From positions 4,800,001-4,832,000 of the forward strand of contig CP104013.1 of the NCBI GenBank assembly GCA_025839675.1: a stretch of DNA of 32,000 nt, written 5' to 3'. This DNA comes from Candidatus Lokiarchaeum ossiferum. GTDB lineage: Archaea; Asgardarchaeota; Lokiarchaeia; Sigyniarchaeales; Promethearchaeaceae. Within the stretch, counting starts at the first letter, position 1; each line of letters starts with the position of its first letter. This document shows positions 10,348 to 27,599 of this stretch, piece by piece. Both the position numbers and the translations under genes were made by a program. The notes beneath the pieces were generated by a model. The model saw only the letters and a program-made list of their open reading frames with translations, was not told the origin of the DNA and did not search any database.

Positions 10348-10348
10348 T

Positions 10349-10600: not shown

Positions 10601-10829
10601 GCGATTCTCAACTGAGGTAAAAAAAGCGGGATTTAATTTATTTTTTTCGTTTTCTTGCCTCTTCGGTGCAAAAAAACTCGGAAAGGGAGGTAAGAAAATC
10701 AAAAATTATATATTGGATAAATCGAAGCCCCTTGATTTCTTGATGGAAGCTATTAAAGATATTTTGTGTTTGCTCGTTCAAAATTTTTTTGATTTTATTG
10801 GAAATATGTGATTATTTGGAAAAGGGTTT

Positions 10830-10857
10830 AAAAAAAGGGGAAGAATACTCATTCCCG
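10830..10857 (-). terminator. candidate terminator of the giant-protein operon (short hairpin + T7)
   Basis: On the minus strand, just after the stop at 10872: GGGAA-tgagtattc-TTCCC (5-bp stem), followed immediately by a T7 run (10830-10836). Confidence 0.4.
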
Positions 10858-10871
10858 GGTGTTTGTTTTGT

Positions 10872-13800
10872 TTATTGTTTGGCTTTACGTCGTTTTTTGA
10901 TGATAAGGAACTCGGGTATTACTAATGTCATACCAATTGGGATCCAGAAAAGACCCACATCTTCATACCAGTGAGAAATAGTTTCTCCAAATTCTGATGC
11001 AAAACTTTTCAAAGGAATTGTGTCAGTCGCCGAAACAATATGGATATTATTCTCAAATAAGTATGTCACATCGAATTCCCCTCCATCTGAGGTGAATTGT
11101 CCGAGCATTGGTCTACTTATCCGACTTGATCCAACATAATGCCATTTTAGTTTTGAAGTTGCACCGTCAATGATGTTTAAGTAGTTATAATTTGTATAAA
11201 CTAAATCATTTGTTCCATCATCATCCATATCCTTAACTATCATGTAGGAATTAACCGCACTCACCATGAGTGGAGCATTGAATCGCCAGACTTCCGTACC
11301 GACATTGTTGTAGGCAACAACACCTTCTCTTTCGAGATTGAGGATTAATTCATCATAGCCATTACTTTGATAGATATCTCCTGCCATGAAACTCCGAAGT
11401 GATGTATCTGCAGCATAAGTGACTGATACTGTATTATGTGATATGATATCAAACATGGTAATAGTCCGATCATAACGATAGGCAATACTTGAATAGGAAG
11501 AAGAAGTGTAATGGAAATTTCCTACGACCATATCCCAAATATTGTTTCCCGTGTTGTGGGTCCAAATATGAGATCCATCTCCGCCTTCAACAAAATATAT
11601 ATCATCATTGTCTCCACCGAAAGCAACATCGAGAGTAGTTAAATCATTGAAGTAACCTACTACAATTTTGTTATTATTGTCATAGATTGTATCCTCACTT
11701 TTATACAATGAATTTCCATCATTGTCATACCATTCAAGATAAGATTCTGTTCCACTACTCTTTTCAAATAGAATAACACATTCATCACCAGGATTTTCAG
11801 AATCTGTATTAAATTCTCCAAAGTAATAATCAGCAATATCATAACCCGTTGGAGCAGAAATAGTGGCGATTGTTTTACCCGAATCTCCATCTAAATATAA
11901 TAGTTCAAATTCTCCATCGGTTTTATTCTCAAAACTAACCGCAAAATCCAAATTTCCATCTTGATTTAAATCGGCAAATTTAACATTACGGATTGTTTTC
12001 TTATATTGAACGCTTATTATTACAGAAGGTTCACTTGTCCATAAATTCAAGTTCATTCCGTCGTTTATTACCAAAATTTCATCAATTCCAGGGGTGGAAG
12101 GGTCAATATCTTCGATATAATATTGGTCAATTTTATCCCCATTGGTCTCGAAATCAAGGTATAGTTGATGAGGATCAAATCCAGCAGGAGCATGTTTGGA
12201 ATATCTATCAGTAGAATCATACACATTGATATATTCAAGATCGTTCCAAGATGCGATTAAATCAAAAGGACCATTACGCTTAAGGGATACTACGGCTCTA
12301 TTTAGTGAGTTTGTTTTGTTAAACCACATAGCCATTCCACTCTTTCCATCAACAGCAACAGTATATCCATCATCTCCAACAACTATTACATCAAATAAAC
12401 CATTTCCTCCAAATTTTCCAATCGTTATATCTTTGATTGTAAATGTTGGGGAATAATTCCATTGAGTTGCTCCACCTTCTAAATCCTCCAAGAATATTCC
12501 ATTGGATTCTGTCTGGGCCAAGACTTCTAATCCTCCATCTCCATCAAAATCTTCAAGATATATTTTTGGACCGATTTTTCCGAAGTAGGTCGAGTTATGC
12601 AAATAATAACTATTATTTACATCGATGACATGAATCGCATCTCCACCAACAATCAGTTCCTCGAATCCATCTTCATTCAAGTCAATAGGGATCATTTCAT
12701 ACCTTCGTCCGCTATTAGAATTCATAACTCCTTCAGAAGTTTCAAAAATTAATGATCCATCAGTGATATTTATGACTGACACTCTTCCATATTGTTCTGA
12801 AATTGCCAATGATGAAACATTTGCATTGTTATAATATCCTGTTTGCATTGAATAGATGCTATATGTACAAACATCTTGTAGATCATCAATTTCTGTGCCA
12901 TTATAGTCCAAAATTTGAATATCGTTTTCATATGCCAATAAGAATTCCATATATCCATCATTATTAATGTCAGCAATATGCCATACTGGAGTGTAATGAG
13001 TAGATGGTTTGGTCCAAATAACTGATCCATTTAAAGCACTAACCACTACAATTTCATCACTTTCATGATGTTTGAAACAAATTTCCAAATATCCATCAGA
13101 ATTTAAGTCAACCACGTCCATGGTCAATGTGTGAGTTCCTGATCCAAAAGAATCTGCCCACAATAGACTTCCATCTTTCTTTAATACGGTCACTTGCTTT
13201 CCTTGCGTAGAAATTGTAATTATTTCATCATTACCATCACCATCCACATCAACACTTTTCATCAAGTCAGAATCGGGAACGTAGTTGATGTCATAATACC
13301 AAGCGCGTTCTGAATTATATAATTCCACTGGGCCTTCTGAAGGATCCCGAAATTCGTAGAAAAATACATTTCCGCGTTTAGTTGCGACGGCAATTTCCTC
13401 AAATCCATTACTTTTTGTATCATACACTGTTAAACCTGTGAAATCATTCTCATACTTCGGTGAAAGCCAAGTTTCTTCATAGGTCATGAAATCCGTTCCA
13501 TCAGTAGAAGATTTCATTTCATAAACTCCAACTTGATCTTCCCAACCCGCGATAACTTCACGACGACCATCAGAATCAGTATCACCAACATCTAGATCCA
13601 ATACTCTTAGTAGTTGATTAGCGGTCCAATCTGATTGTGGATTAATTCCATAACTTTGAACTCCTGCCCAATCAAATTGATCTCCGATCCATGACCAATC
13701 AAAGACATCTACTGTCCAAACGAGCGTATACATAAAACCTTCTCCATCCATTCCTACTATTGTTGGTGAAAATACTCTTGGATTAAAATAGCTCCAAGAT

Positions 13801-16800
13801 GTATAGCCATACTCTGGATATTCCGTTCTAACTAAATCCGGTGGTATGGTGTTTAATGTGTGTTCTCGTCCCCAAGTCATTCCTAGATCAGAACTCGCAA
13901 TAATTCCTATTCGATCCTCATAGGGGACCCCAACATTTTCATAAACTACAATAAGAGACTCATCATCTGATTTTAAAGTATCAATTTCTGGAAAAACTTC
14001 ATCTGTGTATGAATCAGTTATTTGTCTTGCAATTGAATCAGAAAAACCTGATGAATCCCATTGAAGTAAATAAATATCATGATCTGGTTTTCCATTTTTA
14101 GCTGTAAGGGCTGAGAAAACAGTTGCATAGCTTCCATCCGATAATGTTGTTGTTGAAGTTGATTGAATGTCAAAATCAGCATATCCATCAAAAAATAATA
14201 TTCCACTACCTGCATAAGATAAAGTTGATGAAATATCCATTGAGAATGCACCAATCCAGCTTCCCGATCCTAAATAATCATAATCGGCTCTAAATGTAAT
14301 TCCAATATAATCAGAATCCATTTGAAATAAGCTTGGATAATGGAGTAAATCATTTGTGTTCAACGCACCTATTCCTACTGGTGTGTTCCATAGACCCGTT
14401 CCAGTATTCAATTCTGATGCCCAGAATTGTGTATCTCCAATGTTAGTTACGATTTTCCAAACAGCAAAAATTCGACCTGTTGTTGTACATGTAATCGTTG
14501 GTTCGCATTCATATATGAAAGATGCATAGGATGAATCTGGCATCACTTGTTTTGGAACTTCCCATTCTTCAGTACCCTTATTATAACGTTTCCACCAAAG
14601 GTCTGACTTGTTGTTATAAATTTGTAGAATGAAATTACTATACGGTCCACTTTCACAGTTCACCGCATCGCTTCGATATTCATTTTTAAGCCACAAATAC
14701 TCGGTTGTGCTGGGTGCGTAAGTTTCATCCAATTCGATGACTGGGTAATTGGGGGAACTAGTTACATATTCGATTTTTTGATATTCAGAATCTGTTGAAG
14801 GAATATGTTCCCAAATATCAAAACCTTGACTATGACCTATGATTATTTCTTGAGACCAATCATAATCCTGATCATCTAGTTTGATAATTGTAATTGGATT
14901 CCAGTAAACAACTTCACGGGGTGCATTCCAAACCTCATAGAATGTACCACCTTGGCATTCATAAATATTTACAAAACCGTTTTTTCGAATAGCACGTGTA
15001 TCATTGATACCACCTAATATAAGTTCCTTGTATCCATCTTGATCAGTATCTCCCGATGCGAGTGTGTCAATCCAAAAATATTTAAAATTGCTGTCTGCAA
15101 TTGGATTACCAACTAAATCATATCTACCTTCCAAGCTCTTGCTTGTAACAAAGTATTCTTGATCCTCAATCCCTTCATAATTATTTTCGGGGACATTATA
15201 AACAAATAAATAGGGTCCTGCAGCCAATATCAATTCTCTTTGGCCATTATAATCAAGATCATCACCATTAATTAATGCGGTGATCTCAGTTACTTGATCC
15301 CAACCTGATTGGCCAACAAATTCTGAGTCCCAGAGATCAATTGAGTAAATAAATTGCATCTCATCTCCTCCAGTTAATCCCCTATCTTCAAATACATAGG
15401 CTTTTAGATTTGCTGTCACTATCATTTCTTTTAATCCATCCTGATCTAAATCAACATCAGCTAGAAGATTTGTCGCATGATCCCAAATCGTTCGAGTAAA
15501 TTCACCAGATATTCCTTCCAAATCTTGATATAAATAGGGACTTTCTGTTGTACTTTCTTCATGGGTCAAATCAAAAGTTTTATACATCCGTTTATAATTA
15601 TTTTCCACTAAGTTTTCAAATAGATAGACATTGTTATCATAATCACCAACAATTATTTCTCCTTTTCCATCTCCATCAGTATCTGCAGATGTAATTGATA
15701 ACGTCCAATCTTTGAGATCCTCTTCAGTACTCCATGATTCAAGAACATGGTAACCAAAATTCATGAAGTTTGTATCTCCACTATCAAGGAGACTGAATTC
15801 CGTTCTGATAACTTCTGGATAGGATGCTACTATATAACTGTCGATTGCATCATATACTGGTTCTGCCCAGTGTGTGGTATGCGTTTCATTATTATATGTA
15901 ACCATTAAAAACTCTGGATCATCATAATCGTATAAATTTGAATAGATATCATATGTTGAACCCGTACCTACTGGAATAATTCTTGTATCTGTCATTCCCA
16001 AAAATTTTAAATTCGTTTCAGGGCGAGTATTTGAAAATATTCGTTTATCTTGTCTCCAAATAGGCTTGTCCTTAGTTCCGTGATTCAAGAATGCTGTGGA
16101 TCCATTTTTATTGGCGTAACTTAAAATTAAGTCCAAATCGTCATCTTTATCTAAATCGAAAAGTTCTGGTTGGCCCCATGCATTGGATTTTAATTCACTG
16201 TTCACATCTGCAAAGTAATCATGAATAAGGGTGAAATTCATAGTTTCCGTTTCAACCCAAAGATTTTTTGCCAAATATAAACGACCATTGGTGAAAATTA
16301 AATCTTGATCTCCATCTCCGTCGATATCATCAAAGACCATTTTTGGAGTGGTTTTTGACATTCCAACTAGTGCAGTGATTTCTCCAGTTAAATCATAATA
16401 ATTGATATTCCTTCTTAGCGAAAATGGATCACTGAAACCTCCTCGAAACCAGAAATTCAATTCTGCGTTATATGTATCTACATCGTTACCATAAGGTTCG
16501 ATATCTGGGCTGTATGATGCTACGGCGAGAAATGGTAGTGGACTCCCTGTGGCTGGAATTAAGGGGACTTCTACAGATACGAAAGGTTTATCTTTTATTG
16601 CTAAGTAGTTATTGATATCATTAAGATAGGCTTGAACTGTTGAATCTGGCAAGTTCGGAAAAGCTTCATAGGCAAATATTTCTGATTGCTGGGTTCCTAC
16701 GAAGTAATTTGGTGCATCAAAATATGGATTAATATTTCCAAAAGTCCATGAGTTATAGTCTCCCGAAAGTGGTGGCAAAGGCATTGGAACATAATTGGTT

Positions 16801-18761
16801 GGATTGGGACCTTTTAGAAATCGCCATCCTGGAATACTCGCAACGGATTCAATGTGTTGCAAATCCCAAATTCCTGTTCCCGCTGCATAAAATTCGTCAT
16901 CGCCAGAATCCCATACTAATTCATAGATATCTTCTGCACTATTCCACTGAATCCCTAGATATTTACCAGTCACTGTTCCAACAACAATCTTATTGGCTTC
17001 TTCTTCTCCATCCATATAAGCTTGTCCGTCTAATCGTAGTGGGCCAATGGTAAGGGATAATCCATCTGTTAAAAGGTTGTACACTTGCATCAATTCTAAA
17101 GAATTGATGTCATAGTTAGCATCGTTAAATACTGATAATTTTGCATACCTGAACCAATCCCATTTTCTCTCAATGAGTGCGTCATCTACATCAATTCGCA
17201 GTTTGTTTCCCGAAATTGTGAAATGATCTGAGAAAATTTGATCGAAATCTACCCCATCTTGAGAAATTGAGAAATTAAAATCTGAATAAATTGAAGTTGT
17301 TAGACTGGTTGAAAATGTGATTTCAACATCATAAGCATCACTTGCACTTCCAGATCCTTCTTCATCTAATCCAAAATCGACCACTGCAGATGCATTAGTC
17401 ACCCCTGGAATTGAAGCATCAAAAGTTGAATAATTCCCATCGGGCGCCATTGACATTCCGGTATTGTAAGGATAGCAATCAGCATCTGGTTCAAAATGAT
17501 CTGTTACCCAGACATAGTCTATTGGTTCAGGTGCATCGAAGTAAGGTGAGATTGGATTGCTATAAGTGACATTATTTGCCGAGATAACTCTGTCAACATA
17601 ATGATCTAATCCCCAATAGCCAAAAGTTTCCCAATCCTCGTAAGCTCGAACTATTTTTTTATAATCAAAGGTTTTGGTAATTTCATTCCAATCTAATGAG
17701 AACACCCCTTGTCCTTGAGCGATCAAAGCTAATTCTTCTCCCTCACTTCCATCAAGTTCTCCAATATCCATTGATAGAATCGGGGTCCAAGTATAATTTT
17801 CACTCGTCCAAATTAATTCATACGCGTTATCTTGAATTAAGGGGAAATAATCACCATTGATTTCCATACTAATTCCATCATTTTCAAAAATAAACACAGT
17901 TCCTTCGCGAGTTCCAACAACAATTTCAGGAAGTCCATTATGATTAGTATCTCCCGATTCAAGAGAATAGATTTTTTCTCCATCCACATCATCATGATAA
18001 ACTTGACGGTAGGTTATCCAATGTTCTTCGTTGAATGGATAACCAGAATGTTCATCGTATTCATAAAGGTATAATCCATCCCAAGATCCAACAATAATAT
18101 CCGGTCGATAGTCTCGATCGGCATCTTCAATTTTCACATCAAACACTCGAAACATGGAAGGTGATGTCCATACCAATTCAAACATATTTTCAGTATTAGT
18201 GAATGGATCATAGATATGGCGTTGTTCAAAAACATACACATGCCCATCAGAACTTCCTGCAACGATTTCTAAGAAATCATTCAAATCAGTATCTCCAAAT
18301 GCAATTGCCATTACATCACTTTGAATAATTCCATCACCACATACCCAAACCTTGTCAAAATCCCCTGTTTCAGTATTTAAACGATACAAATGTACTTCAT
18401 TATCATACAAATATCCTCCAGCCATAGCTAAATATCCTGTATCTTCATGATAAGATACTGCATGAATGGCTGCTTGTGACTTCCAAGGTTGGTATATTTC
18501 AGTGTAATCATTATCCCGATCCCCAAGAACAACTCCAATATCTTGATCTGAAGGAAATTTAACCATTTCTTCTTCCAACAGATTAGTTACAGCGGGTTGA
18601 ATGTCCATAGGGAGTTCATCTAAAATGTTTTCACCTACATCTTGAGTAATTTGTTTCAATTCTTCTTTTTGATTATAATTGGGCAATAACGATACTACGT
18701 TCATCATTACTAAGCTAAGTACGATTAAACCTGCAATTTTTGTTTTAATTAAGTTTTTCAT
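10872..18761 (-). CDS. giant (2629 aa) surface protein: FG-GAP/VCBS (integrin-alpha-like) and PQQ-like beta-propeller repeats with discoidin-like and BNR-like inserts; signal peptide and C-terminal TM anchor
   Basis: Signal peptide MKNLIKTKIAGLIVLSLVMMNVVSLL. At least 15 Ca2+-loop + strand repeats of FG-GAP type (GDTDLNDFLEIVAGSSDGHVYVFE, GDTNHNGLPEIVVGTREGTVFIFEN, DDIDGDGDQDLIFTN, ADTDGDGKGEIIVGDYDNNVYLFEN, GDTDSDGRREVIAGWEDQVGVYE, VDVDGDGNDEIITIS, IDLNEDGFEELIVGG, EDFDGDGGLEVLAQ, KDMDDDGTNDLVYTN...). The C-terminal third has 'DGs..W' PQQ-like turns. Many N-x-S/T sequons. C-terminus LFWIPIGMTLVIPEFLII-KKRRKAKQ. Confidence 0.8.
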   Translation of the reverse strand: MKNLIKTKIAGLIVLSLVMMNVVSLLPNYNQKEELKQITQDVGENILDELPMDIQPAVTNLLEEEMVKFPSDQDIGVVLGDRDNDYTEIYQPWKSQAAIHAVSYHEDTGYLAMAGGYLYDNEVHLYRLNTETGDFDKVWVCGDGIIQSDVMAIAFGDTDLNDFLEIVAGSSDGHVYVFEQRHIYDPFTNTENMFELVWTSPSMFRVFDVKIEDADRDYRPDIIVGSWDGLYLYEYDEHSGYPFNEEHWITYRQVYHDDVDGEKIYSLESGDTNHNGLPEIVVGTREGTVFIFENDGISMEINGDYFPLIQDNAYELIWTSENYTWTPILSMDIGELDGSEGEELALIAQGQGVFSLDWNEITKTFDYKKIVRAYEDWETFGYWGLDHYVDRVISANNVTYSNPISPYFDAPEPIDYVWVTDHFEPDADCYPYNTGMSMAPDGNYSTFDASIPGVTNASAVVDFGLDEEGSGSASDAYDVEITFSTSLTTSIYSDFNFSISQDGVDFDQIFSDHFTISGNKLRIDVDDALIERKWDWFRYAKLSVFNDANYDINSLELMQVYNLLTDGLSLTIGPLRLDGQAYMDGEEEANKIVVGTVTGKYLGIQWNSAEDIYELVWDSGDDEFYAAGTGIWDLQHIESVASIPGWRFLKGPNPTNYVPMPLPPLSGDYNSWTFGNINPYFDAPNYFVGTQQSEIFAYEAFPNLPDSTVQAYLNDINNYLAIKDKPFVSVEVPLIPATGSPLPFLAVASYSPDIEPYGNDVDTYNAELNFWFRGGFSDPFSLRRNINYYDLTGEITALVGMSKTTPKMVFDDIDGDGDQDLIFTNGRLYLAKNLWVETETMNFTLIHDYFADVNSELKSNAWGQPELFDLDKDDDLDLILSYANKNGSTAFLNHGTKDKPIWRQDKRIFSNTRPETNLKFLGMTDTRIIPVGTGSTYDIYSNLYDYDDPEFLMVTYNNETHTTHWAEPVYDAIDSYIVASYPEVIRTEFSLLDSGDTNFMNFGYHVLESWSTEEDLKDWTLSITSADTDGDGKGEIIVGDYDNNVYLFENLVENNYKRMYKTFDLTHEESTTESPYLYQDLEGISGEFTRTIWDHATNLLADVDLDQDGLKEMIVTANLKAYVFEDRGLTGGDEMQFIYSIDLWDSEFVGQSGWDQVTEITALINGDDLDYNGQRELILAAGPYLFVYNVPENNYEGIEDQEYFVTSKSLEGRYDLVGNPIADSNFKYFWIDTLASGDTDQDGYKELILGGINDTRAIRKNGFVNIYECQGGTFYEVWNAPREVVYWNPITIIKLDDQDYDWSQEIIIGHSQGFDIWEHIPSTDSEYQKIEYVTSSPNYPVIELDETYAPSTTEYLWLKNEYRSDAVNCESGPYSNFILQIYNNKSDLWWKRYNKGTEEWEVPKQVMPDSSYASFIYECEPTITCTTTGRIFAVWKIVTNIGDTQFWASELNTGTGLWNTPVGIGALNTNDLLHYPSLFQMDSDYIGITFRADYDYLGSGSWIGAFSMDISSTLSYAGSGILFFDGYADFDIQSTSTTTLSDGSYATVFSALTAKNGKPDHDIYLLQWDSSGFSDSIARQITDSYTDEVFPEIDTLKSDDESLIVVYENVGVPYEDRIGIIASSDLGMTWGREHTLNTIPPDLVRTEYPEYGYTSWSYFNPRVFSPTIVGMDGEGFMYTLVWTVDVFDWSWIGDQFDWAGVQSYGINPQSDWTANQLLRVLDLDVGDTDSDGRREVIAGWEDQVGVYEMKSSTDGTDFMTYEETWLSPKYENDFTGLTVYDTKSNGFEEIAVATKRGNVFFYEFRDPSEGPVELYNSERAWYYDINYVPDSDLMKSVDVDGDGNDEIITISTQGKQVTVLKKDGSLLWADSFGSGTHTLTMDVVDLNSDGYLEICFKHHESDEIVVVSALNGSVIWTKPSTHYTPVWHIADINNDGYMEFLLAYENDIQILDYNGTEIDDLQDVCTYSIYSMQTGYYNNANVSSLAISEQYGRVSVINITDGSLIFETSEGVMNSNSGRRYEMIPIDLNEDGFEELIVGGDAIHVIDVNNSYYLHNSTYFGKIGPKIYLEDFDGDGGLEVLAQTESNGIFLEDLEGGATQWNYSPTFTIKDITIGKFGGNGLFDVIVVGDDGYTVAVDGKSGMAMWFNKTNSLNRAVVSLKRNGPFDLIASWNDLEYINVYDSTDRYSKHAPAGFDPHQLYLDFETNGDKIDQYYIEDIDPSTPGIDEILVINDGMNLNLWTSEPSVIISVQYKKTIRNVKFADLNQDGNLDFAVSFENKTDGEFELLYLDGDSGKTIATISAPTGYDIADYYFGEFNTDSENPGDECVILFEKSSGTESYLEWYDNDGNSLYKSEDTIYDNNNKIVVGYFNDLTTLDVAFGGDNDDIYFVEGGDGSHIWTHNTGNNIWDMVVGNFHYTSSSYSSIAYRYDRTITMFDIISHNTVSVTYAADTSLRSFMAGDIYQSNGYDELILNLEREGVVAYNNVGTEVWRFNAPLMVSAVNSYMIVKDMDDDGTNDLVYTNYNYLNIIDGATSKLKWHYVGSSRISRPMLGQFTSDGGEFDVTYLFENNIHIVSATDTIPLKSFASEFGETISHWYEDVGLFWIPIGMTLVIPEFLIIKKRRKAKQ

Positions 18762-18764
18762 TGA

Positions 18765-21700
18765 TTATGCCCCTCCTTTTTTCTTTTTCAAAATTATTAA
18801 AATCGTGGTTCCTATTAATAGAACTGAACCACCTCCAATACCGCCCCAAAAGAGTGCAGGGTTAATTTGGGTGATCACCTCAAAATAGACAACCACTTTA
18901 TGAACTGTGCCGTTGAGATCCCGGCCATAGACTTCCATTGTGTAATTTCCGGGTTCCCAAGTAATCGTGTCATTAAACCATTGTTGTTTATCCGCTTCAT
19001 AGGTCATCGAGACATTATCACTCCATCCCGTGCCATTATCAAAGCGATACCATACATCACTAAAGGATGTAAAATTAACCACTCTGACTTGAGTTTTTAA
19101 ATAAACTGTAGACTGGTTTTTAGGTAGTAACACTTTCATGCTTCCAGAACCTAGCGCAATACTTAGCATGTTATTAAATTCTTCTTTTGAGGTCCATACT
19201 AAAGGATCAGTACCAACAGCCATTTCAGTTCCATCGGAAAATCCATCTCCATCTGTATCTGATTTAGTAGGATCTGTTCCGTAGAGATAGTATTCATCTC
19301 CATCTAAGAGTCCATCAAAATCTGAATCGGGATTTTCAATACCTCCTCCATAAATTGCTTGAGTCCCAATTTTGAATTCTAATCCATCTGCTAATCCATC
19401 AAAATCTGTATCAAATTCGTATCCATCAATAATTCCATCGTTATCAGAATCATCATCCATTGGATCCGTGCCATAATAATGCACCTCTGCTCCATCAGGT
19501 AATAAATCGCCATCCGAATCTGGGTTTAATGGATCGGTGTTATATGTGGTAATTGTTACCGAAGCCACGAATGGAATCGGGACTTGGGATGCTGAAGCAG
19601 GCAATATAATTGTGAGTAATTCTTCATTATCATATAACCCATCTCCATCCGTATCATTATAGATGGCTGAAGTATTATATTTGAAAATTTCATCATAATC
19701 TGATAAAGTATCATTATCGGTATCTATCACTTGTGGATTAGTGTTGTATACAATAACTTCTAAGTAATCATTTACTCCATCCCCATCTGTATCATTCAAA
19801 ACAGCACTTGTATTGTATTGAAATACGAGCGTTGCTGAAATGAAGGGGTAAAGTATATCAGTTTGATTCTTTAATTGCACTTCTAAACCGTCTTCAAGTC
19901 CATCTCCATCTGTATCATTACTTAATGGATTCAATGGGATTGGATCGGTCCAAGGAATTTGTCCAGAACCTAAATAAAGTTCAAGACCGTCTCTTAATCC
20001 ATCCATATCGGTATCCGATCGGGTGGCATTTGTTCCATATACCATGACTTCATCATAATCGCTCATTGGCCAAGTCATTTTTCCTTCGGCATTTGGTTCA
20101 ACAATAGAATCTCCATCGGTATCCCAATTGAGTGGATCGGTGTCATAGAACAAAATTTCTTCACCATCGGAAAGTCCTTCGCCATCAGAATCATAATCAA
20201 ACGGATCCGTTCCATAGACAAATATTTCTTGATAGTCCGTGAGTCCATCATTATCGGAATCCTCATCCATTGGGTCGCTACCATATTTTAAGACTTCATC
20301 TCCATCAACAATGTTGTCTCCATCACTGTCATCGGTCAAAGGATTACTGTGCCAAAAGTAAACTTCTTCTCCGTCTGTCAGACCATCAAAATCCGTATCA
20401 ATCAAGTTTGGATTAGTGAAGAAAATATAAAATTCATCACCATCAGGGATCATATCAAAATCACTATCCGCGGTTCGAGGATCTGTCCCAAGCAAAATTT
20501 CTTGCATATCAAATAGTCCATCATCATCGGTATCAGGATCGTTGGCATTTGTGTGGTTGCTATATGGATTGAGTACTCCTTCAATTCCATCAATTAATCC
20601 ATCATCATCACTATCCCCATCTGTAGGATCGGTTCCATAGGCTAATTCAAATCCATCTCCGTTTAACCATTGACCTGGCAGTGGCGTATGATCGCTGTTA
20701 CCCGTATCACCATCCGTATCAGGATTCACCGGATTTGTAAAAACATGCTTGAGTTCAGGTTCTCCCTCATCATCATAAACAATTAGATCAAAACCCGCAA
20801 CTTCAGCTCCATCATTGCAGTCGAAGAGATAATAATTATTCAATTGCTTGTCGACCATTCCATTGTATAATTGATAATTGGAATCATCATCAGTATCCGC
20901 ATCTAGAGGATGTGTGTATCCATAAAAGAATATGAGTGGATCTCCTGCAACTGCAGTATCGGTCTCATTATAGAGTGAGTCCAAACCATAATATGCTCCC
21001 ATTGGGCCTTCATCTCCATCCATTAAACCATCCCCGTCCGTATCGGGGTTAAGTGGATCCGTGTGGTCATTGTAGGTTTCTCCTCCGATATTGATTTCAG
21101 TTACTGTGGTGGTAACATTATCAATATCCCATTTAGTGTAAATTTCATAAGCATCTGTCAATCCATCTCCATCTGTATCTTGAGAGAAAGGATCTGTGTT
21201 GTAAACTTTTAGTTCTTCATAATCAGTGACATCGTCCCAATCGGTATCTGGTTGAAGAGGGTTTGTTCCTTCATCCCATTCTTCCCCATCAGTTAATCCA
21301 TCATTGTCTGTGTCTGGATCTGTGGCATCAGTTCCCATGGTTTTGACTTCAAGTTTATCTCCGGCTCCGTCTCCATCTGTATCTGGATTATTTGGATCTA
21401 ATCCGGGGATCGTAGCTTCATACTCGTCTCCAAGCCCATCACCATCTGAATCGAAACCTATACCGGCATCTTCGTAATCGGTGTCACCCTTATTTGGGGA
21501 TAAATCCCATGGACCGCCAGGTTCCCATGTCCAAGTTTTAGTTGTTGAAGCAAATAAAAACCGTAGCTTAATTTTAAGCGTTAGTATTAACCTAAGAGTT
21601 ATCTTCATAGGAGCACTTGATGACAGATCTTGGAAGAATGTGAGAATTATTTCTAGTGACCCATCAATCACGATTTCGACGATCAAAAGATTAATGCCAA

Positions 21701-24700
21701 TATGAATCGCCACTCCCAAAGTAATGACAATCGTCAATGTCGATACTTCGGGAGATGTTGCACTGGCAGCTTTCTTGCAAATATCTATTTCGACCCCTAA
21801 ATATATGGAAATCGTTATCGAATCTAATCCCAGAAATTCGGCTACTGCATTAATTGCTCCTCCACCCATACCACCTGTGAAGAATTCTAAAAGGGTCATG
21901 GTTTTAGAAAGTTGGATTTTTATATTAAATCCCCATTCAATAATATTAAAGAAGTCTTCCCATTCAAAAATACCTCCTTTGAAAGTAAAGAGACTCATCT
22001 TGAAATGAGCACTGCCGGAAAATGATAATTCTAATCCCAAAGCGCCTAATAAATACTGCATAAAAGAGTTTTTAGATGAATCCATACCATCTACTCCCAG
22101 TTCTGCTACAAAAACGGGACTTATTTCAAAACATGCAAAAATAGTTTTGAAGAAATCACCTACGGAGTTCAATGAAAAAGTACTTCTTCCATCAAAGATC
22201 AAACTTTTAATAAAATCTAAAAGGGGTGTGGGATCGATATTAAAGTTGGCTGTAATTCCTAAATCTATTTTTAGATCGAAAAGCGACCATTCTCCCAATC
22301 CAATTGGGATTTTTCCATGGTAACCAATTATTTCTTGTCCTCCTCCAAAGATTCCCAAAATGGCTGTTTCCAGTTCATCTATCATAGGATTGAGTAAACC
22401 TGTTAACCAATCCATCACTTTTCCAATTATCCAATCTAATCCATTCGTAAATAATCCTTTAAGATCCATGGCAATTTTTAAGAACTGGTTTAACATTTCA
22501 CTATACTGAGTTGGTATTAATCCTGAAACAATAGACATTATTTCATTAATGATTTGCGTTGCACTGGGTAGATCTTTTGGTTCTAAGCCAAACATCTCGG
22601 GGAAAAAGGATTTTAAGAGGTTCAAAAATGCATCTATAGGGACTCCATCAAAATAAGGGTGAATTGTAATAATCGACCCTACCGAAGTCCATAATGCTTG
22701 GAGTATACCTTTGAAAGACTTACCTTTCACCGAAGAAACGAGATTTAGAATTCCACTGGCAATTTCTCCAAAAGTGTTAATTGTTGAATTGAATGTTTCT
22801 GTTCTTTTTGCTTGAGGGGTAAATCCCGTTATCACACCTTTCAATAATTTAGGAATCGCTTGATACAAATTGGTCCCAACATCTTTCAGAGCATTTTTCA
22901 TTAATTGTTTAAGAGACCCTGAATCGGTAATATAGGCAATCATACCTAAAATAGGTCGAACGGTTTCGTTCACAATTTTTTTTATGGTTGTTAAATCCGT
23001 GCTACCCATCCCTACTTCATCCAAAATGTCAAATGCAATCTCAAATAAGTCGGGTAATTGATTAACATCAAATCCATCATTGTAAATTCCGGTAATAATT
23101 GTCATAACATCTGCTATTATATTCCGAAGATTCGATGAAACTGAAGAAGCTAAACCTTCTTCTAATTTTGCTATGATTTCTGCTTTGAAATTTGCAACAC
23201 TGGTCATTCCTCCTTCCTTGTAGTTTTTCACAATATTCATGACTTTTCGGGCTAGTTCTTCAGCATCTCCAACGATACTTGAATCCCCCACGAATTCTTG
23301 TAAAACTACTTTAACCAACTCAATTACTGATTCGGCATTGAAGTTGTCCACCAAATCGATTACTTTGAACGATAATTTCATCATGGATGTTATTTTGTCC
23401 ATTCCGGCTTGCATATCGGTGCTAACTGTTCCAGCCAATAATTGGAGTAAAGGTCCACCTATGTTTTCTAATAATTCTTCAATATCAAAATTCACAAGAA
23501 AGGAAACGAGACTTTTTACCACTGATTTTACTTTTGGCAACATATCGGAGACTTCAGAAGGTGTCCATCCTAGTACGCCTGCAATAGTTTTGTTTAACAG
23601 TGCATCTAAGACGTTTTCCATAAAGAAACTAACCATTACATCAAAAACATTTTTCCCTTCATTGACCACTTCATCAATAGAATTCCACAAATCTTCTCCA
23701 AAATCTAAAATACTAAATATTGTATCCACAATTCCGCTAGATTCTTCTGGTAGTAGATCTGCCATGAGGGTCTGAATTAATTCCATAACAATTTCCATGA
23801 TATCGGAGGTATCCCCACGTAAGTTGAATAATGCCTTCACAAAGATATTCAAGTAATCTTTCATGCTTTCAATAAAAGGAAATTCATTCGAAATAGCATC
23901 GATAACTATTTTTAGTGCACTTTCAGCGCTGGGATCTTTTGCCAATCCAATTAATTGAGTTATTTGTCCAAAAGATGATTGGATTGTTTCCATGATGTTC
24001 GAAGGGATAGATAGGGATGTATCACCTGTTGATTCCATAATGGTTAAGAGCACATCAACAATTTCTCCAATAGGTCCACTTAATCCTGAAAAGAGTGGAA
24101 GTTCTCCTAAATCAAAATCATCTTCTGCGGCAGCTTCCGGTGCGGATAGTTTGATTATTGGACTGAATCCTTCATCTAGTTCTTCTTCCGGAATTTCGGT
24201 AAGCTCTCCTTCTTCATCTTTATAATATGCGGTAGGTTCTAATTCAGCTTCATGACGATCCCACATGGCATTTTTCCGTTCTTCGGCTGCTTCGGGATCA
24301 ATTTGTCCAACAGGTGTTTGAGGTTCGGTTGAAACTTGGAAGAGTGCATTGAAATTATCTGCGTAAATTTGCCCACTCATTTGTTTTAAGTCCTCAGCGG
24401 CTTTAAGATAGTTTTCATCTTCAGCGGATTTCTTTTCAGCAAGTTCTGCAACACTCCAGATATCGAACATAGTTAGTAAAATGGCATCGGTTTGTTCCGC
24501 TTCGCTGTGATGGATATAATTCGCATCGGAAGGAATAAATTTGTCAAAAGTTAGAGTGTTTCCCATTCCCATAATATGTTGGGTGTTTGGTTGAGCTAAA
24601 AGAAGTTTAGTAAAGGTGCGCCACGAAAGTGAGTACTCTTCAAAATTAACACCATACAAGTTTGAATCCAAAGCATAGATGGCCAGCCATGGAGCATCAT

Positions 24701-25001
24701 AAAGTTCAAGTCGCAGATCTGTTGCGGAACTAATTGGGATCATTCTTACATTTTTCAATCTAAATCCGATCACCTCATGTACTGATTCTGCAATATCTAT
24801 CATTTTTGGGAGATTAGGATCATAAAAGATGTAAACCCAATCTAAATCATATTTGTCTAACGGATTAGTGTCTTTCCGTTGACTTTCTTCCATAAATTCG
24901 GCAGCTGAAGCCGCTTGCGGAATAATACTAAAAGCAAACGTTGCTATAACGAATACTGAAAGAAGTTGAATGTGAAATTTGTGAGATTTATAAAACTTCA
25001 T
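18765..25001 (-). CDS. giant (2078 aa) surface protein with ~26 thrombospondin-type-3-like Ca2+-binding repeats, a large unassigned N-terminal region, an Ig-like C-terminal domain and a TM anchor
   Basis: Signal peptide ...VFVIATFAFSIIPQAASAAEF. Residues ~1165-1935 carry repeated D-x-D-x-D-G-x-x-D-x-x-E units (DTDGDGLTDAYE, DTDNDGLTDGEE, DSDDDGLIDGIE, DTDFDGLTDGEE, DSDNDGIIDGYE, DTDGDGFSDGTE...). A beta-sandwich-like segment follows (VWYRFDNGTGWSDNVSMTYE..YTMEVYGRDLNGTVHKVVVYFEV), then TM GGIGGGSVLLIGTTILIIL-KKKKGGA. Its stop is 3 nt before the start of the FG-GAP gene. Confidence 0.8.
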   Translation of the reverse strand: MKFYKSHKFHIQLLSVFVIATFAFSIIPQAASAAEFMEESQRKDTNPLDKYDLDWVYIFYDPNLPKMIDIAESVHEVIGFRLKNVRMIPISSATDLRLELYDAPWLAIYALDSNLYGVNFEEYSLSWRTFTKLLLAQPNTQHIMGMGNTLTFDKFIPSDANYIHHSEAEQTDAILLTMFDIWSVAELAEKKSAEDENYLKAAEDLKQMSGQIYADNFNALFQVSTEPQTPVGQIDPEAAEERKNAMWDRHEAELEPTAYYKDEEGELTEIPEEELDEGFSPIIKLSAPEAAAEDDFDLGELPLFSGLSGPIGEIVDVLLTIMESTGDTSLSIPSNIMETIQSSFGQITQLIGLAKDPSAESALKIVIDAISNEFPFIESMKDYLNIFVKALFNLRGDTSDIMEIVMELIQTLMADLLPEESSGIVDTIFSILDFGEDLWNSIDEVVNEGKNVFDVMVSFFMENVLDALLNKTIAGVLGWTPSEVSDMLPKVKSVVKSLVSFLVNFDIEELLENIGGPLLQLLAGTVSTDMQAGMDKITSMMKLSFKVIDLVDNFNAESVIELVKVVLQEFVGDSSIVGDAEELARKVMNIVKNYKEGGMTSVANFKAEIIAKLEEGLASSVSSNLRNIIADVMTIITGIYNDGFDVNQLPDLFEIAFDILDEVGMGSTDLTTIKKIVNETVRPILGMIAYITDSGSLKQLMKNALKDVGTNLYQAIPKLLKGVITGFTPQAKRTETFNSTINTFGEIASGILNLVSSVKGKSFKGILQALWTSVGSIITIHPYFDGVPIDAFLNLLKSFFPEMFGLEPKDLPSATQIINEIMSIVSGLIPTQYSEMLNQFLKIAMDLKGLFTNGLDWIIGKVMDWLTGLLNPMIDELETAILGIFGGGQEIIGYHGKIPIGLGEWSLFDLKIDLGITANFNIDPTPLLDFIKSLIFDGRSTFSLNSVGDFFKTIFACFEISPVFVAELGVDGMDSSKNSFMQYLLGALGLELSFSGSAHFKMSLFTFKGGIFEWEDFFNIIEWGFNIKIQLSKTMTLLEFFTGGMGGGAINAVAEFLGLDSITISIYLGVEIDICKKAASATSPEVSTLTIVITLGVAIHIGINLLIVEIVIDGSLEIILTFFQDLSSSAPMKITLRLILTLKIKLRFLFASTTKTWTWEPGGPWDLSPNKGDTDYEDAGIGFDSDGDGLGDEYEATIPGLDPNNPDTDGDGAGDKLEVKTMGTDATDPDTDNDGLTDGEEWDEGTNPLQPDTDWDDVTDYEELKVYNTDPFSQDTDGDGLTDAYEIYTKWDIDNVTTTVTEINIGGETYNDHTDPLNPDTDGDGLMDGDEGPMGAYYGLDSLYNETDTAVAGDPLIFFYGYTHPLDADTDDDSNYQLYNGMVDKQLNNYYLFDCNDGAEVAGFDLIVYDDEGEPELKHVFTNPVNPDTDGDTGNSDHTPLPGQWLNGDGFELAYGTDPTDGDSDDDGLIDGIEGVLNPYSNHTNANDPDTDDDGLFDMQEILLGTDPRTADSDFDMIPDGDEFYIFFTNPNLIDTDFDGLTDGEEVYFWHSNPLTDDSDGDNIVDGDEVLKYGSDPMDEDSDNDGLTDYQEIFVYGTDPFDYDSDGEGLSDGEEILFYDTDPLNWDTDGDSIVEPNAEGKMTWPMSDYDEVMVYGTNATRSDTDMDGLRDGLELYLGSGQIPWTDPIPLNPLSNDTDGDGLEDGLEVQLKNQTDILYPFISATLVFQYNTSAVLNDTDGDGVNDYLEVIVYNTNPQVIDTDNDTLSDYDEIFKYNTSAIYNDTDGDGLYDNEELLTIILPASASQVPIPFVASVTITTYNTDPLNPDSDGDLLPDGAEVHYYGTDPMDDDSDNDGIIDGYEFDTDFDGLADGLEFKIGTQAIYGGGIENPDSDFDGLLDGDEYYLYGTDPTKSDTDGDGFSDGTEMAVGTDPLVWTSKEEFNNMLSIALGSGSMKVLLPKNQSTVYLKTQVRVVNFTSFSDVWYRFDNGTGWSDNVSMTYEADKQQWFNDTITWEPGNYTMEVYGRDLNGTVHKVVVYFEVITQINPALFWGGIGGGSVLLIGTTILIILKKKKGGA

Positions 25002-25024
25002 GAAAAAATTACTGCGAATTAGCT

Positions 25025-25032
25025 TAATTAAT
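25025..25032 (-). promoter_or_regulatory. candidate TATA box for the giant-protein operon (possibly a leaderless transcript)
   Basis: Palindromic TTAATTAA centred about 28 nt upstream of the ATG at 25001. No Shine-Dalgarno-like motif lies in between. The spacing fits an archaeal TATA-to-TSS distance with a near-leaderless mRNA. Confidence 0.25.
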
Positions 25033-25241
25033 GTTTTCTTCGATATTGCCCCAATATTAGAATAATTCCAAAAAAAGGGATTGATTTCATTGTATTTTTT
25101 CCAAATTTACATCTGAAAATCTAGAAAAATTACCAAAAAAACCATTTCTAATTATTGAAGGGACTTAGATTATTACTACATGGAATAACAACTATTTTCA
25201 GTAATTAAGATTTAACCAATAATAAATATTTGGTGTGCTTT

Positions 25242-27599
25242 ATGATATCCTTAAAACTCTCAAAAAATGAATTTTTAGATTTGATTTCTGCTTTTGAGAA
25301 TTTTTGTTTTCATAATCACTCCAATATTTATCATTATGCTGGCCAAAGTGTGAGTTTCTCTGAAAATGAATTTAATGATGAGACTGTGAATCCAAAAATG
25401 TTGGTTGAGCTACTTGAAGATAAACCATTGATGAAACGACAACAATCTGGCACGGTTTTTACTCCTGATACAATCACATACGAGATCGTATCTTTAGTCT
25501 TAAATATGAAAATGAGTCATCATTTTGCCAAAACCCCAAATTCTCACAATTTATTTAATTTCAAAGGGAGTTTCTGGGTTAATTTTAATAAATGGGTTAA
25601 AAAATCTTCAATTTCACAACTTTCTTCTTTTTTAAGTGAATTGTTCGGTTTATTTCTTTCCAAAAATAAAATATTAGATCCTGCTGTAGGGGGTGGATCT
25701 TTCATTTTCACTACTTTTCTAAAATATTTAGAATTTTATGTTCTTCTCTATCCTTATTACATTAATCCTAACAAGAGTCAATTGTCAAAGATGTCTTTGG
25801 TGCAACTTTTGGGAGTATGGAATCAATGGGAAAATACATCTTCCATTGAAAAACGGTTTAAATTCCTTCATCTGACATTCCATAATTCGACTCCATCTCA
25901 AAAAAGTGATATAACTCATAATTTTCTTAAAATATTAAATGAAAATATTGTTTGTTTCGATATCGACCCTATTGCAGTACGAGTTACGAAAATTCGACTC
26001 CATTGTTTATTAAAAACTTTTTTTGGTCATTCTGCGATGGAAAAAACACCTCTTTCGATCCAAACCCACTCGCTTGATTTTCTTTCTGTCACTTCAAAGA
26101 ATCTCCTACCTTACTTTGACATAATATTGGGTAATCCTCCATATGTGGGATCTGATTCATTGGCAAAATTCTATCCTCGCTCTCATCATGAGGATCTAAA
26201 AAATAAATTTAGGGAGGTCGTTTTATTAGGGAGTAAACCTGATCTATATTTTTATTTTATAAAACGAAGCCTCGATTTACTCGCCAAAGAGGGAATTTTA
26301 GGCTTTATCATACCCAATCGAATTCTATCGAATACTTATGCTCAGAAGTTGCGGGAATATATCTTCTCAGTAACACGAATTGATTATGTGATTACTTTTT
26401 CTGATACGCTGGAAATATTTCCTTCCGCAAATGTTCATCCTTGCGTTATTCTACTTAAAAAACCAAACATAGTTGGAGATCCCGAAAATTATATTACTAA
26501 ACATTTTACGAATTTAGAAAAATCAAATCAGAGTGGATGGGATCTTGGAATGAATACTCAAATTCCCTTAACCTTAGCTAAAAATTATAATCTATTTTTA
26601 TCCGGTCTATCCTCTAAAAATATTTTATTTTTAGAAAAAATGGCTTCTTTTTCGCCGCTTAAATCCATTTTGCACATTCGAGAAGGTACCCGACTTGCAC
26701 GTTTTAAATCCAAATACCCTCCCAGCTTCCCTTATCGAATATCTAAGGATGAATGGAGTAATTTGTCACTTCCAGAACAATCTCAATACTTGGCAGAAAT
26801 TCGGGGAAAACAAATTAAATCTTATTCTATCTTACCTACTACATCTTATCTTGCCCTTCCCAATCTTCTTTTGTCTAATAATATTGTTTCCCAACGATTA
26901 GCTTTGCTAGAAAAATATTCCAAACCTACCGTGTTTATTCGGGAGTTGGGTAAAGAAATTTTTGCTTCCTACATCGATTGCAGTTCCCAACCTTCCATTG
27001 GTTATGGGGGGGTTTATTTCTTTCAATATGCTGATTTTACGGCAAAATTTCTTAAAACTTTTGAAAAAATTGATCTTCCTTCATCTGATGTTTTATTGGC
27101 TTTTTTAGTATATTTTTCTTCGACTTTCTTCTTAAAACTTTACAGGATTCTATTTACAACAGGATCTTGGGGAAATGCGCTTAAATTCCGTAGTTCATAT
27201 TTTGAACAGATCCCTTTTGTTCCCTTCAATTATGAGTTGTTTGCCGTGTTTGGTCAAATTTTGATGATACTTAATCATCCTTCTTCCTTAAAATCCTATG
27301 AAAAAGTTAAAAATACTACACAACTCATCACTTGGATTGAGGGCATACGAGAGAAATTATTAATTGGGCGAATTTATTCTCAAGATGTTCCTACTATCTC
27401 CAATTTTGAGAAATTTCTTCTTGGTTCTCTAAATGAATTCCACTTTTCCAAGGATCTAGAATACTCCTTGGATAAATTGGAGAATCTTCTAAATTTTTTG
27501 TCAATAACACGAACTAAAATTTCAAGTCAAAAGTTTTATAGTGTATTTCTTAAGGAAGTGAGTGATTGTGAGAATAGATTGATTAAAGAATCTCAATAA
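25242..27599 (+). CDS. gamma-class N6-adenine DNA methyltransferase (TaqI/Eco57I-methylase-like), stand-alone
   Basis: Motif X GTVFTPDTITYEIV, motif I ILDPAVGGGSFIF (25677-), motif IV ILGNPPYVGS (NPPY at 26133-26144). The post-NPPY block (KPDLYFYFIKRSLDLLAKEGILGFIIPNRIL) parallels M.TaqI ([31 protein letters not shown]), and a long C-terminal region contains a TaqI-like TRD start (LKSILHIREGTR). The ORF track starts at TTG 25230; ATG 25242 is preferred. Confidence 0.8.
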   Translation: MISLKLSKNEFLDLISAFENFCFHNHSNIYHYAGQSVSFSENEFNDETVNPKMLVELLEDKPLMKRQQSGTVFTPDTITYEIVSLVLNMKMSHHFAKTPNSHNLFNFKGSFWVNFNKWVKKSSISQLSSFLSELFGLFLSKNKILDPAVGGGSFIFTTFLKYLEFYVLLYPYYINPNKSQLSKMSLVQLLGVWNQWENTSSIEKRFKFLHLTFHNSTPSQKSDITHNFLKILNENIVCFDIDPIAVRVTKIRLHCLLKTFFGHSAMEKTPLSIQTHSLDFLSVTSKNLLPYFDIILGNPPYVGSDSLAKFYPRSHHEDLKNKFREVVLLGSKPDLYFYFIKRSLDLLAKEGILGFIIPNRILSNTYAQKLREYIFSVTRIDYVITFSDTLEIFPSANVHPCVILLKKPNIVGDPENYITKHFTNLEKSNQSGWDLGMNTQIPLTLAKNYNLFLSGLSSKNILFLEKMASFSPLKSILHIREGTRLARFKSKYPPSFPYRISKDEWSNLSLPEQSQYLAEIRGKQIKSYSILPTTSYLALPNLLLSNNIVSQRLALLEKYSKPTVFIRELGKEIFASYIDCSSQPSIGYGGVYFFQYADFTAKFLKTFEKIDLPSSDVLLAFLVYFSSTFFLKLYRILFTTGSWGNALKFRSSYFEQIPFVPFNYELFAVFGQILMILNHPSSLKSYEKVKNTTQLITWIEGIREKLLIGRIYSQDVPTISNFEKFLLGSLNEFHFSKDLEYSLDKLENLLNFLSITRTKISSQKFYSVFLKEVSDCENRLIKESQ

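Follow-up and report, generated by a model that had tools for sequence, protein, structure and literature searches.

Two very large genes, designated A and B below, lie side by side on the minus strand of a 32,000-nucleotide stretch of the genome of Candidatus Lokiarchaeum ossiferum B35 (contig CP104013.1, positions 4,800,001 to 4,832,000; hereafter the window, to which all coordinates refer). They are the subject of this article, and their products may be the two subunits of a single complex displayed at the surface of Asgard archaea. An earlier note, made from the nucleotide sequence, had described them as open reading frames (ORFs) of 2078 and 2629 amino acids set 3 nucleotides apart, and we confirmed both the coordinates and the junction: the TAA stop codon of A (18767-18765) is followed by tca, then by the ATG of B (18761-18759). 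The note had also weighed the possibility of an Asgard host, rightly as it turns out, gene A being NEF87_004127 (UYP47842.1) and gene B NEF87_004126 (UYP47841.1; protein identity 100%) of strain B35. Reading frames of such length are impossible by chance at 35% GC, hence we take both to be real, and many homologues are known for each of the two protein families.

The layout of the DNA shows A and B to be made from one transcript-like unit, in line with the co-transcription that had been claimed for this coupled pair. A Shine-Dalgarno motif for B is embedded in the very end of A, and a terminator-like hairpin with its run of seven T is found after B only, as no such element was read between the two genes in the window. 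No Shine-Dalgarno motif was read ahead of the ATG of A, which is preceded by an AT-rich region that is presumed to hold its promoter (Table 1). The embedded signal is a general property of the pair: a GGAGG-like motif was present in 47/47 A/B junctions, within the last ~25 nucleotides of A or just past its stop codon, with B starting at an ATG or GTG that lies a few bases after the stop codon of A or overlaps it. It accounts for a curious conservation, that of the ...K-K-G-G-x C-terminus of A in Asgard lineages, and it is consistent with translational coupling of the two genes.

Table 1. Genes A and B, their parts and the adjacent signals, with positions in the window
Feature	Positions	Strand	Basis or remark
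Gene A, 2078 amino acids	18765..25001	(-)	Signal peptide, 1130-residue head, TSP3 region, membrane-proximal domain, transmembrane helix, KKKKGGA tail
AT-rich intergenic region 5' of A (presumed promoter region)	25002..25229	(-)	Sequence read; common with the divergent methylase gene
A signal peptide, residues 1-33	24903..25001	(-)	Hydropathy; hydrophobic residues 9-27; ...PQAASA|AE
A head part 1: residues ~56-145 small alpha/beta, then mixed helices and strands, 334-886 helical	22344..24902	(-)	AlphaFold2 (AF2)
A head part 2: beta-rich domain, residues 890-1160	21522..22334	(-)	AF2; best-conserved part of the head
A TSP3 region, residues 1184-1935	19197..21452	(-)	Pfam TSP3_bac and motif counts; most conserved segment of A or B
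A membrane-proximal segment, residues ~1936-2045	18867..19196	(-)	Beta-rich by eye; matches no Pfam family
A transmembrane helix (residues ~2050-2071) and cytoplasmic KKKKGGA tail	18768..18854	(-)	Hydropathy; hydrophobic core 2053-2071
GGAGG Shine-Dalgarno motif of B	18772..18776	(-)	Within the last codons of A (...K-G-G), 10 nucleotides before the ATG of B
Gene B, 2629 amino acids	10872..18761	(-)	Signal sequence/anchor, four FG-GAP/VCBS propeller regions, two inserted domains, transmembrane helix, KKRRKAKQ tail
B N-terminal module, residues ~95-640: beta-propeller with inserted beta-sandwich (~390-575)	16842..18479	(-)	AF2; most conserved part of B
B second propeller region, residues ~641-1340	14742..16841	(-)	FG-GAP_3 and FG-GAP matches; conserved patch ~1000-1100
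B middle domain, residues ~1341-1720	13602..14741	(-)	No Pfam match; among the most strain-variable parts
B third and fourth propeller regions, residues ~1721-2595	10977..13601	(-)	Segment-wise Pfam; fast-evolving
B transmembrane helix (~2603-2621), KKRRKAKQ tail, stop codon	10872..10976	(-)	Hydropathy
Terminator-like GGGAA...TTCCC hairpin and T7 after B	10830..10856	(-)	Sequence read; would mark the end of the two-gene unit

Both proteins are built in the same manner, with a basic n-region, a hydrophobic N-terminal segment (residues 9-27 in B as well), a single C-terminal hydrophobic helix and a Lys/Arg tail. The signal peptide, helix and basic tail that the earlier note had ascribed to each of them were thus confirmed, both by hydropathy and by their conservation in homologues. 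The hydrophobic region and the AxA-like site are kept in 38/38 A homologues having a definable N-terminus, and the C-terminal helix and basic tail of A are conserved too, the tail being enlarged to ~70 Lys/Ser/Thr-rich residues in Thor lineages. Taken together with the positive-inside rule, these segments are consistent with the type-I topology predicted for A and B, and the fused forms described below corroborate it. Both proteins are strongly acidic (net charge about -264 for A and about -289 for B) and nearly cysteine-free.

The strict pairing that had been supposed from a single locus was examined through the adjacency of homologues. There are more than 150 homologues of B; those spanning nearly all of it are mostly 2600-2700 amino acids long, and the annotated ones carry an Asgard label. 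A genome scan with the B alignment, which relied on two conserved B motifs and may therefore miss divergent lineages, gave 68 loci, from Thor, Loki (Promethearchaeum, Harpocratesius), Hermod, Hod, Heimdall (three complete genomes), Kari and Njord metagenome-assembled genomes (MAGs). All stop-to-stop ORFs of these loci were then searched with the head of A. The N-terminus of B is present in 64 of them, and 52 could be assessed, having more than 3.1 kb of upstream sequence, while the other 12 end too near B. An A homologue lies immediately upstream of B, on the same strand, in 52/52: complete in 45 cases, cut by the end of the contig in one and fused with B in six. The paired loci cover Thor, Loki/Promethearchaeum/Harpocratesius, Hermod, Hod, Heimdall and Njord, and a unit that is coupled or fused in these lineages, at least six named ones, is probably ancestral to the Asgard archaea. 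Comparison of the neighbours over the loci revealed no third gene conserved family-wide beside the pair.

The six natural fusions, all in Thor-type MAG loci (L006, L007, L027, L031, L036 and L048), form ORFs of up to ~4900 amino acids where they are not cut by a contig end, and they run in a constant order: A ectodomain, transmembrane helix, Lys-rich linker of 55-80 residues, B N-terminal hydrophobic segment, B ectodomain. A second fused group (P0075 and P0078), only ~30% identical, displays the same hairpin of two transmembrane segments joined by a linker. Such a hairpin would bring both ectodomains to the same, outer side of the membrane. Another protein, P0028, also belongs to the fused forms with a transmembrane segment, a Lys-rich linker and a second transmembrane segment, and in the fused genes the former junction continues to encode KKGGSS.

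Several further observations pertain to the distribution of the pair. Some genomes hold more than one module, be it two A-B loci in a single MAG (L014 and L032) or a new A gene ~6 kb past a B; the loci tied to such repeated modules are L014/L032, L021/L023, L062/L068, L066:10974-15072, L033, L061 and L069. A second B-like gene is found 0.4-3 kb downstream of the first in some loci. In lineages where B is enlarged (3100-3200 amino acids), a conserved gene of ~950-1010 codons directly follows it on the same strand (L062:16026-19058 and seven other Hod/Heimdall/Hermod-type loci); its sole Pfam match is a PPC (pre-peptidase C-terminal) domain, and it is confined to some Hod and Heimdall(/Hermod-type) loci. 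Four of the 68 loci (L041, L042, L052 and L070) bear the NCBI labels Nitrososphaerota or Bathyarchaeota; L041 and L042 come closest to Njordarchaeum in their B sequences, and the neighbouring genes in L041 and L052, searched with Pfam, were taxonomically uninformative. These labels may reflect mislabelling, misbinning or transfer.

Protein A is dominated, in its second half, by an array of type-3 repeats recognized by the Pfam family TSP3_bac (PF18884, E=3.8e-41). The repeat type proposed earlier is therefore correct, while the proposed number of about 26 units was slightly high: between residues 1184 and 1926 we count 17 strict DxDxDGxxDxxE motifs, 22 of the form DxDxDxxxDxxE, and 24 under a relaxed definition, most of them following a period of 23 amino acids with few insertions. 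Among unfused A homologues the strict count stays within 19-24, and Tandem Repeats Finder detected no repeat at the DNA level over both genes, from which it follows that the protein repeats are old and degenerate and that the TSP3 array is of constrained length, in contrast to many adhesins, whose repeats expand rapidly. A search of PDB sequences with the TSP3 half of A gave no match.

More than half of A, residues 1-1160, had escaped the attention of the earlier note: it is a head without type-3 repeats that falls outside the known families. No Pfam family matches it, in A or in 15 diverse homologues, and a profile built from these 16 heads and compared with the PDB yielded nothing beyond designed helical repeats and noise from syntaxin. 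When 1.84 billion protein representatives were searched exhaustively with HMMER, only 89 relatives of the head were recovered, and the full-length ones are all either proteins of ~2040-2330 amino acids or A-B fusions, so that the head seems confined to this architecture. An AF2 model of it built from 12 sequences is of moderate confidence (mean predicted local distance difference test, pLDDT, 66; predicted TM-score, pTM, 0.42), with local pLDDT values of ~85 for residues 56-145 and 55-89 for the helical part. In this model the beta domain consists of ~10 amphipathic strands of 14-19 residues, one face hydrophobic and the other polar, the hydrophobic face having a mean Kyte-Doolittle value of about +2.4 to +3.9 in strands longer than 12 residues. 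The invariant columns of the head are concentrated at residues 851-1149. When the model was compared with the PDB by Foldseek, large lipid transfer proteins came first and outer-membrane beta-barrels next, with marginal E values and very low query-normalised TM-scores; a library of viral structures returned nothing meaningful, the barrel matches recurring there.

Protein B was correctly recognized from the start as an assembly of FG-GAP repeats, of which at least 15 had been announced; this was conservative, as about 24-26 calcium-loop motifs of the FG-GAP/VCBS type can be counted. Its Pfam matches are FG-GAP_3 (1.1e-26), FG-GAP (3e-10) and the FAM234A/B propeller (1.2e-10), together with BBS2_Mid and the BBS7 propeller, while the PQQ-like turns that had also been proposed are represented by a sub-threshold PQQ_2 match (9.7e-5). 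Scanned segment by segment, B yields propeller matches in residues 1-420, 560-1340, 1700-2200 and 2200-2629, and no Pfam match in residues 400-600 and 1340-1720. Residues 60-700, modelled confidently by AF2 from 42 sequences (pLDDT 81, pTM 0.77), form a propeller with an inserted beta-sandwich, and the Foldseek neighbours of this model are generic propellers (a phage tail protein, a KICSTOR chain, Elp2, Seh1/Sec13, BBS7), integrin alphaV coming at rank 13. No PDB sequence was matched by B as a whole. Residues 152-290 and 1765-1800 (~17892-18307 and ~13362-13468) reach or exceed the gathering thresholds set by Pfam for BBS2_Mid, the BBS7 propeller and FAM234A/B, and B homologues additionally match Itfg2. 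These matches to families with eukaryotic names probably express a general FG-GAP/VCBS similarity, not a specific link with the BBSome or KICSTOR.

A further trait that the earlier note did not foresee is the contrast between a B that is hypervariable from strain to strain and an A that is conserved. Over 34 Asgard sequences (mean pairwise values), identity within A reaches 60-65% in the TSP3 array, well beyond what would be expected from the motif positions alone, 43-48% in the beta domain and 24-28% in the helical region; within B it is 55-63% at residues 100-300, ~60% at residues 1000-1100 and ~20% in the C-terminal propellers. A is more conserved than B in 39/40 of the closest locus pairs. 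The matter becomes most acute within the species itself, thanks to the genome of a second L. ossiferum strain, B36, at 97.2% average nucleotide identity (ANI) (10.64898/2026.02.13.705702). Its locus (L074, CP163304) is fully syntenic with the window, and B35 and B36 share 97.5-100% identity in the flanking proteins and 97.9% in A, against 52.2% in B. The divergence sets in at the start codon of B and ends ~30 codons before its stop codon, the last ~30 residues of B being 90% identical. A third syntenic locus, from a metagenome (L075, ENA ERZ26802894), has 93% identity in A, 54% in B and 87% in FeoB, and the three Lokiarchaeum alleles of B are ~52-55% identical among themselves. In residues 100-400 of B, 76-92% of the columns are nevertheless identical in all three alleles, as opposed to 10-56% in the third and fourth propellers.

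Judged from these alignments, conservation of A with replacement of B is what marks a subunit exposed at the surface and subject to diversifying or frequency-dependent selection. Replaced wholesale between strains at 97% ANI, B is likely to be the target of selection driven by viruses or by partners. That its N-terminal module is kept while the remainder is exchanged is most easily explained by a conserved partner, and we propose that this module may be the docking site for A.

Placed beside known systems, the pair is made of domain types that are ordinary for prokaryotic surface proteins, and profile searches gave significant matches for both of the repeat types named in the earlier note (TSP3_bac, FG-GAP_3 and FG-GAP), the eukaryotic TSP_3 model itself giving none on A at E<=0.01. 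By its profile matches B belongs to the FG-GAP/VCBS propeller superfamily, reviewed in PMC8023676, whose repeated blades with DxDxDG-type loops are present in its four propeller segments. It differs from relatives such as integrin alpha heads, tachylectin, ITFG1/2, FAM234A/B and BBS2/BBS7 in uniting four propeller regions and two inserted domains in one chain. The N-terminal propeller of integrin alpha does have its counterpart in B, by the FG-GAP_3 and FG-GAP matches and the AF2 propeller. Other integrin parts are absent: no Pfam family of the thigh or of calf-1/2 is matched by whole B or by its six segments; no G[FY][FY][KR][KR] string akin to GFFKR occurs in B, whose tail is KKRRKAKQ; and no VWA match, the hallmark of a betaI/MIDAS partner, is found by Pfam in A or in the 16 homologous heads. 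It had been stated that A contains no DxSxS, which does not hold, as the string occurs literally at residue 327, in a low-confidence loop, and at residue 1125, in the beta domain, neither of them a Rossmann-like VWA fold; the absence of a VWA/MIDAS domain does hold. An integrin alpha/beta analogue is thus rejected, B lacking legs and GFFKR and A lacking a VWA/betaI domain, and the earlier note was right not to claim one.

With thrombospondins and COMP, A shares the type-3 repeats (22-24 DxDxDGxxDxxE units of 23-residue period, of the TSP3_bac family), which in A are placed between a 1130-residue head and a membrane anchor and form an unusually conserved array (60-65% identity over the Asgard lineages sampled). 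Pfam finds in A no TSP_C lectin-like, EGF or coiled-coil oligomerisation family, and residues 1936-2078 are matchless, so that membership of the thrombospondin family is rejected, the type-3 repeats being present and the C-terminal lectin-like, EGF and coiled-coil parts absent. The best NCBIfam matches of A are the Myxococcus proteins CglD (NF033765, 157 bits) and MtsD (NF047639, 49 bits), a gliding-motility lipoprotein and a cell-cell cohesion protein respectively, according to their NCBIfam names. This offers a functional analogy for an archaeon that crawls and aggregates; A remains, however, far below the equivalog cut-offs of 400 and 800 bits, only the repeats align, and head, anchoring and partner differ. 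In the AF2 model the head of A is also similar to large lipid transfer proteins (MTP, vitellogenin/lipovitellin, the N-terminal region of ApoB) in the order of its parts, a helical solenoid then long amphipathic strands, a resemblance to be read as a lead only, since it comes with Foldseek E values of 3e-4 to 3e-2, TM-scores below 0.11, a moderate model and no sequence-family match. Finally, PADLOC returned no match for A or B, hence the pair does not belong to the catalogued defence systems, and in the Asgard/Promethearchaeota literature that was searched there is no account of the pair, of its locus tags or of its accessions, nor any account with FG-GAP, VCBS, TSP3, thrombospondin or integrin-like proteins.

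The other genes of the window fit an Asgard genome. They encode LSM, L37e, a radical-SAM/HhH protein, a DUF4130 protein and FeoAB, and further a PUA protein, UDP-glucose dehydrogenase, a type IIG methylase and two small GTPases. The genes of the latter are adjacent, 457-1215 (-) and 1246-2034 (-), with Pfam matches of the Gtr1/RagA and Arf types; such GTPases are eukaryotic-signature-type proteins typical of Asgard genomes. The genes for LSM (Sm-like) and for ribosomal protein L37e, 10096-10702 (-), come immediately 3' of B beyond the terminator-like hairpin. On the other side, divergent to A, 25230-27599 (+) encodes an Eco57I/type IIG restriction-modification methylase (MTase_II and REase_MTase_IIG in PADLOC), whose identity falls to 65% in the third Lokiarchaeum locus and which has no linkage to the A-B pair in other lineages. 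'RM Type IIG' is one of just two defence systems common to B35 and B36 (10.64898/2026.02.13.705702), and the methylase of the window may be that system. Two antisense ORFs, one inside B (16748-17053 (+), 101 codons) and one inside A (23239-23775 (+), 178 codons), are most likely spurious, created by a strand-biased composition (GC skew about -0.1 to -0.2 over both genes). A tRNA scan of the whole window found no tRNA gene.

What could such a pair be for? We lean, with a confidence somewhat above even, towards seeing in A and B the paired subunits of an ancient complex, Asgard-wide in distribution, that is membrane-anchored, displayed outwards and involved in attachment or recognition. They would form a stoichiometric heteromer at the cell surface, with a conserved core, made of the TSP3 array and amphipathic beta domain of A and of the first propeller of B with its insert, that would join the subunits. 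Canonical Asp-rich motifs of the calcium-binding type are abundant in the TSP3 array of A and in the blade loops of B, and tens of bound Ca2+ ions may rigidify this core. The periphery, that is the middle domain and C-terminal propellers of B and the helical region of A, would face the environment and evolve fast, up to the replacement of a whole allele between strains of one species, a variable B being docked through its constrained module onto an invariant A. Selection by viruses, or by the recognition of partners or kin, may account for the variability of B. The likeliest task of the whole would be to attach to, or to recognise, surfaces, partner cells or protrusions of the cell itself in a Ca2+-dependent way. 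A single membrane encloses the L. ossiferum cell, which lacks a surface layer (S-layer) and bears both unassigned and membrane-bridging densities (PMC9834061; 10.64898/2026.02.13.705702), and which crawls in an adhesion-dependent manner, no adhesin being named (10.1101/2025.11.30.690169). This published biology makes an A-B complex plausible, and ties none of those structures to A or B; the complex might be part of the 'complex surface densities' that electron cryo-tomography (cryo-ET) reveals on these S-layer-free cells.

A number of points weigh against this view. Neither protein appears in the proteome supplements that were searched, those accompanying three papers on L. ossiferum and one on P. 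syntrophicum. Surface location, binding of Ca2+ and contact between A and B are all deduced from sequence, and adjacency and fusion prove a functional linkage, not a stable complex. As the searches revealed neither a lectin nor a VWA domain, nor any other domain recognised to bind ligands, adhesion is proposed by analogy with other FG-GAP/TSP3 surface proteins. The model of the head of A, with its pLDDT of 66 and pTM of 0.42, is only moderately confident, and the four loci with non-Asgard labels mean that restriction of the pair to Asgard archaea is not proven.

It may be asked, then, whether a complex is needed at all. FG-GAP and TSP3 repeat proteins often stand alone on prokaryotic surfaces, and A and B could be independent giant adhesins, co-expressed without forming a complex and each with ligands of its own. 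Such independence is difficult to reconcile with adjacency in 52/52 loci at phylum-scale divergence, without any other conserved neighbour, with two divergent fusion groups and a Shine-Dalgarno motif embedded in 47/47 junctions, with a head of A known only in the paired architecture, and with an N-terminal module of B that is kept (76-92% of columns) amid general replacement; we hold it to be improbable. Nor do we think it likely that the primary role of the pair is a viral one, B being a hypervariable receptor, or a decoy or shield, carried by an invariant A, with adhesion secondary. This would account for an allele of B being replaced within a species while A and the flanks stay ~98-100% identical, as well as for three Lokiarchaeum alleles mutually ~52-55% identical; it would also suit the failure of the B36 virus Fyl1 to infect B35 (10.64898/2026.02.13.705702) and the presence of a type IIG restriction-modification gene as the divergent neighbour of A. 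Yet B35 and B36 differ in most of their defence systems, enough alone to explain host range (10.64898/2026.02.13.705702), neither A nor B has a PADLOC match, the restriction-modification neighbour is not kept beside the pair in other lineages, and hypervariability is equally expected under partner or kin recognition. The viral role is in any case compatible with a surface complex. Polymorphism of B between strains might also evoke a polymorphic-toxin or contact-dependent competition system, and an orthologue cluster with PQQ_2, TSP3_bac and FG-GAP_3 in the supplement of an L. ossiferum paper bears the labels arCOG07561 and arCOG10338, category V, which point to polymorphic toxin delivery; A or B may belong to that cluster. 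At our locus neither protein holds a toxin domain, at its C-terminus or elsewhere, since both end in a transmembrane helix and a short basic tail that in B are conserved; the variable part is most of the ectodomain of B and not a C-terminal tip; and 3' of B come a terminator, then LSM and L37e, with no small immunity-like gene and, as said, no PADLOC match. We consequently reject such a system, which we regard as very unlikely.

Two more proposals concern the architecture of the envelope. A might be a tether that engages membranes or lipids, its distal head binding lipid or entering a second membrane, that of a partner cell or of the cell's own protrusions, with B as a regulatory or recognition subunit. 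The ~10 strands of 14-19 residues with one strongly hydrophobic face point in this direction, and so do the top Foldseek matches of the head model, MTP (6i7s, E 3e-4), vitellogenin, lipovitellin and ApoB, the matches to the outer-membrane beta-barrels FepA and EspP (probability 1.0, E 0.007-0.06), with barrels recurring in the viral library, and the thin protein densities joining membranes that cryo-ET has revealed (10.64898/2026.02.13.705702). We consider it a rather doubtful proposal, and no less speculative is its bolder form, in which A-B would be an ancestral Asgard envelope machine, a Ca2+-rigidified tether whose head binds lipid or enters a second membrane so as to bridge the cell to syntrophic partners or to its own protrusions, with B in charge of strain-specific recognition. 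A conserved, acidic, membrane-anchored pair rich in Ca2+ motifs, in organisms without recognised S-layer proteins, might finally be the Asgard counterpart of the S-layer, a regular protective lattice. This seems highly improbable, given that cryo-ET of B35 and B36 displays unordered densities and no lattice (PMC9834061; 10.64898/2026.02.13.705702), and that the replacement of one subunit between strains would be unusual in a lattice former.

If we now return to the surface complex that we favour, what appears to be new is a two-gene module, coupled or fused throughout a phylum, with a family-less head of some 1100 residues and the replacement of one of its subunits at the level of strains. Cultured Asgard archaea have no S-layer; they display 'complex surface densities', aggregates with partners, bridging of membranes and adhesive crawling, and no surface protein has yet been linked to these traits. 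The A-B pair, 4.7k residues in total, is a concrete, if unproven, candidate for such structures, specific and open to testing in culture. Strains B35 and B36 constitute in this respect a natural experiment for host range, aggregation and motility. Should the function prove to be ordinary adhesion, the outcome would still be a useful annotation of a pair of 'hypothetical' proteins present across the phylum.

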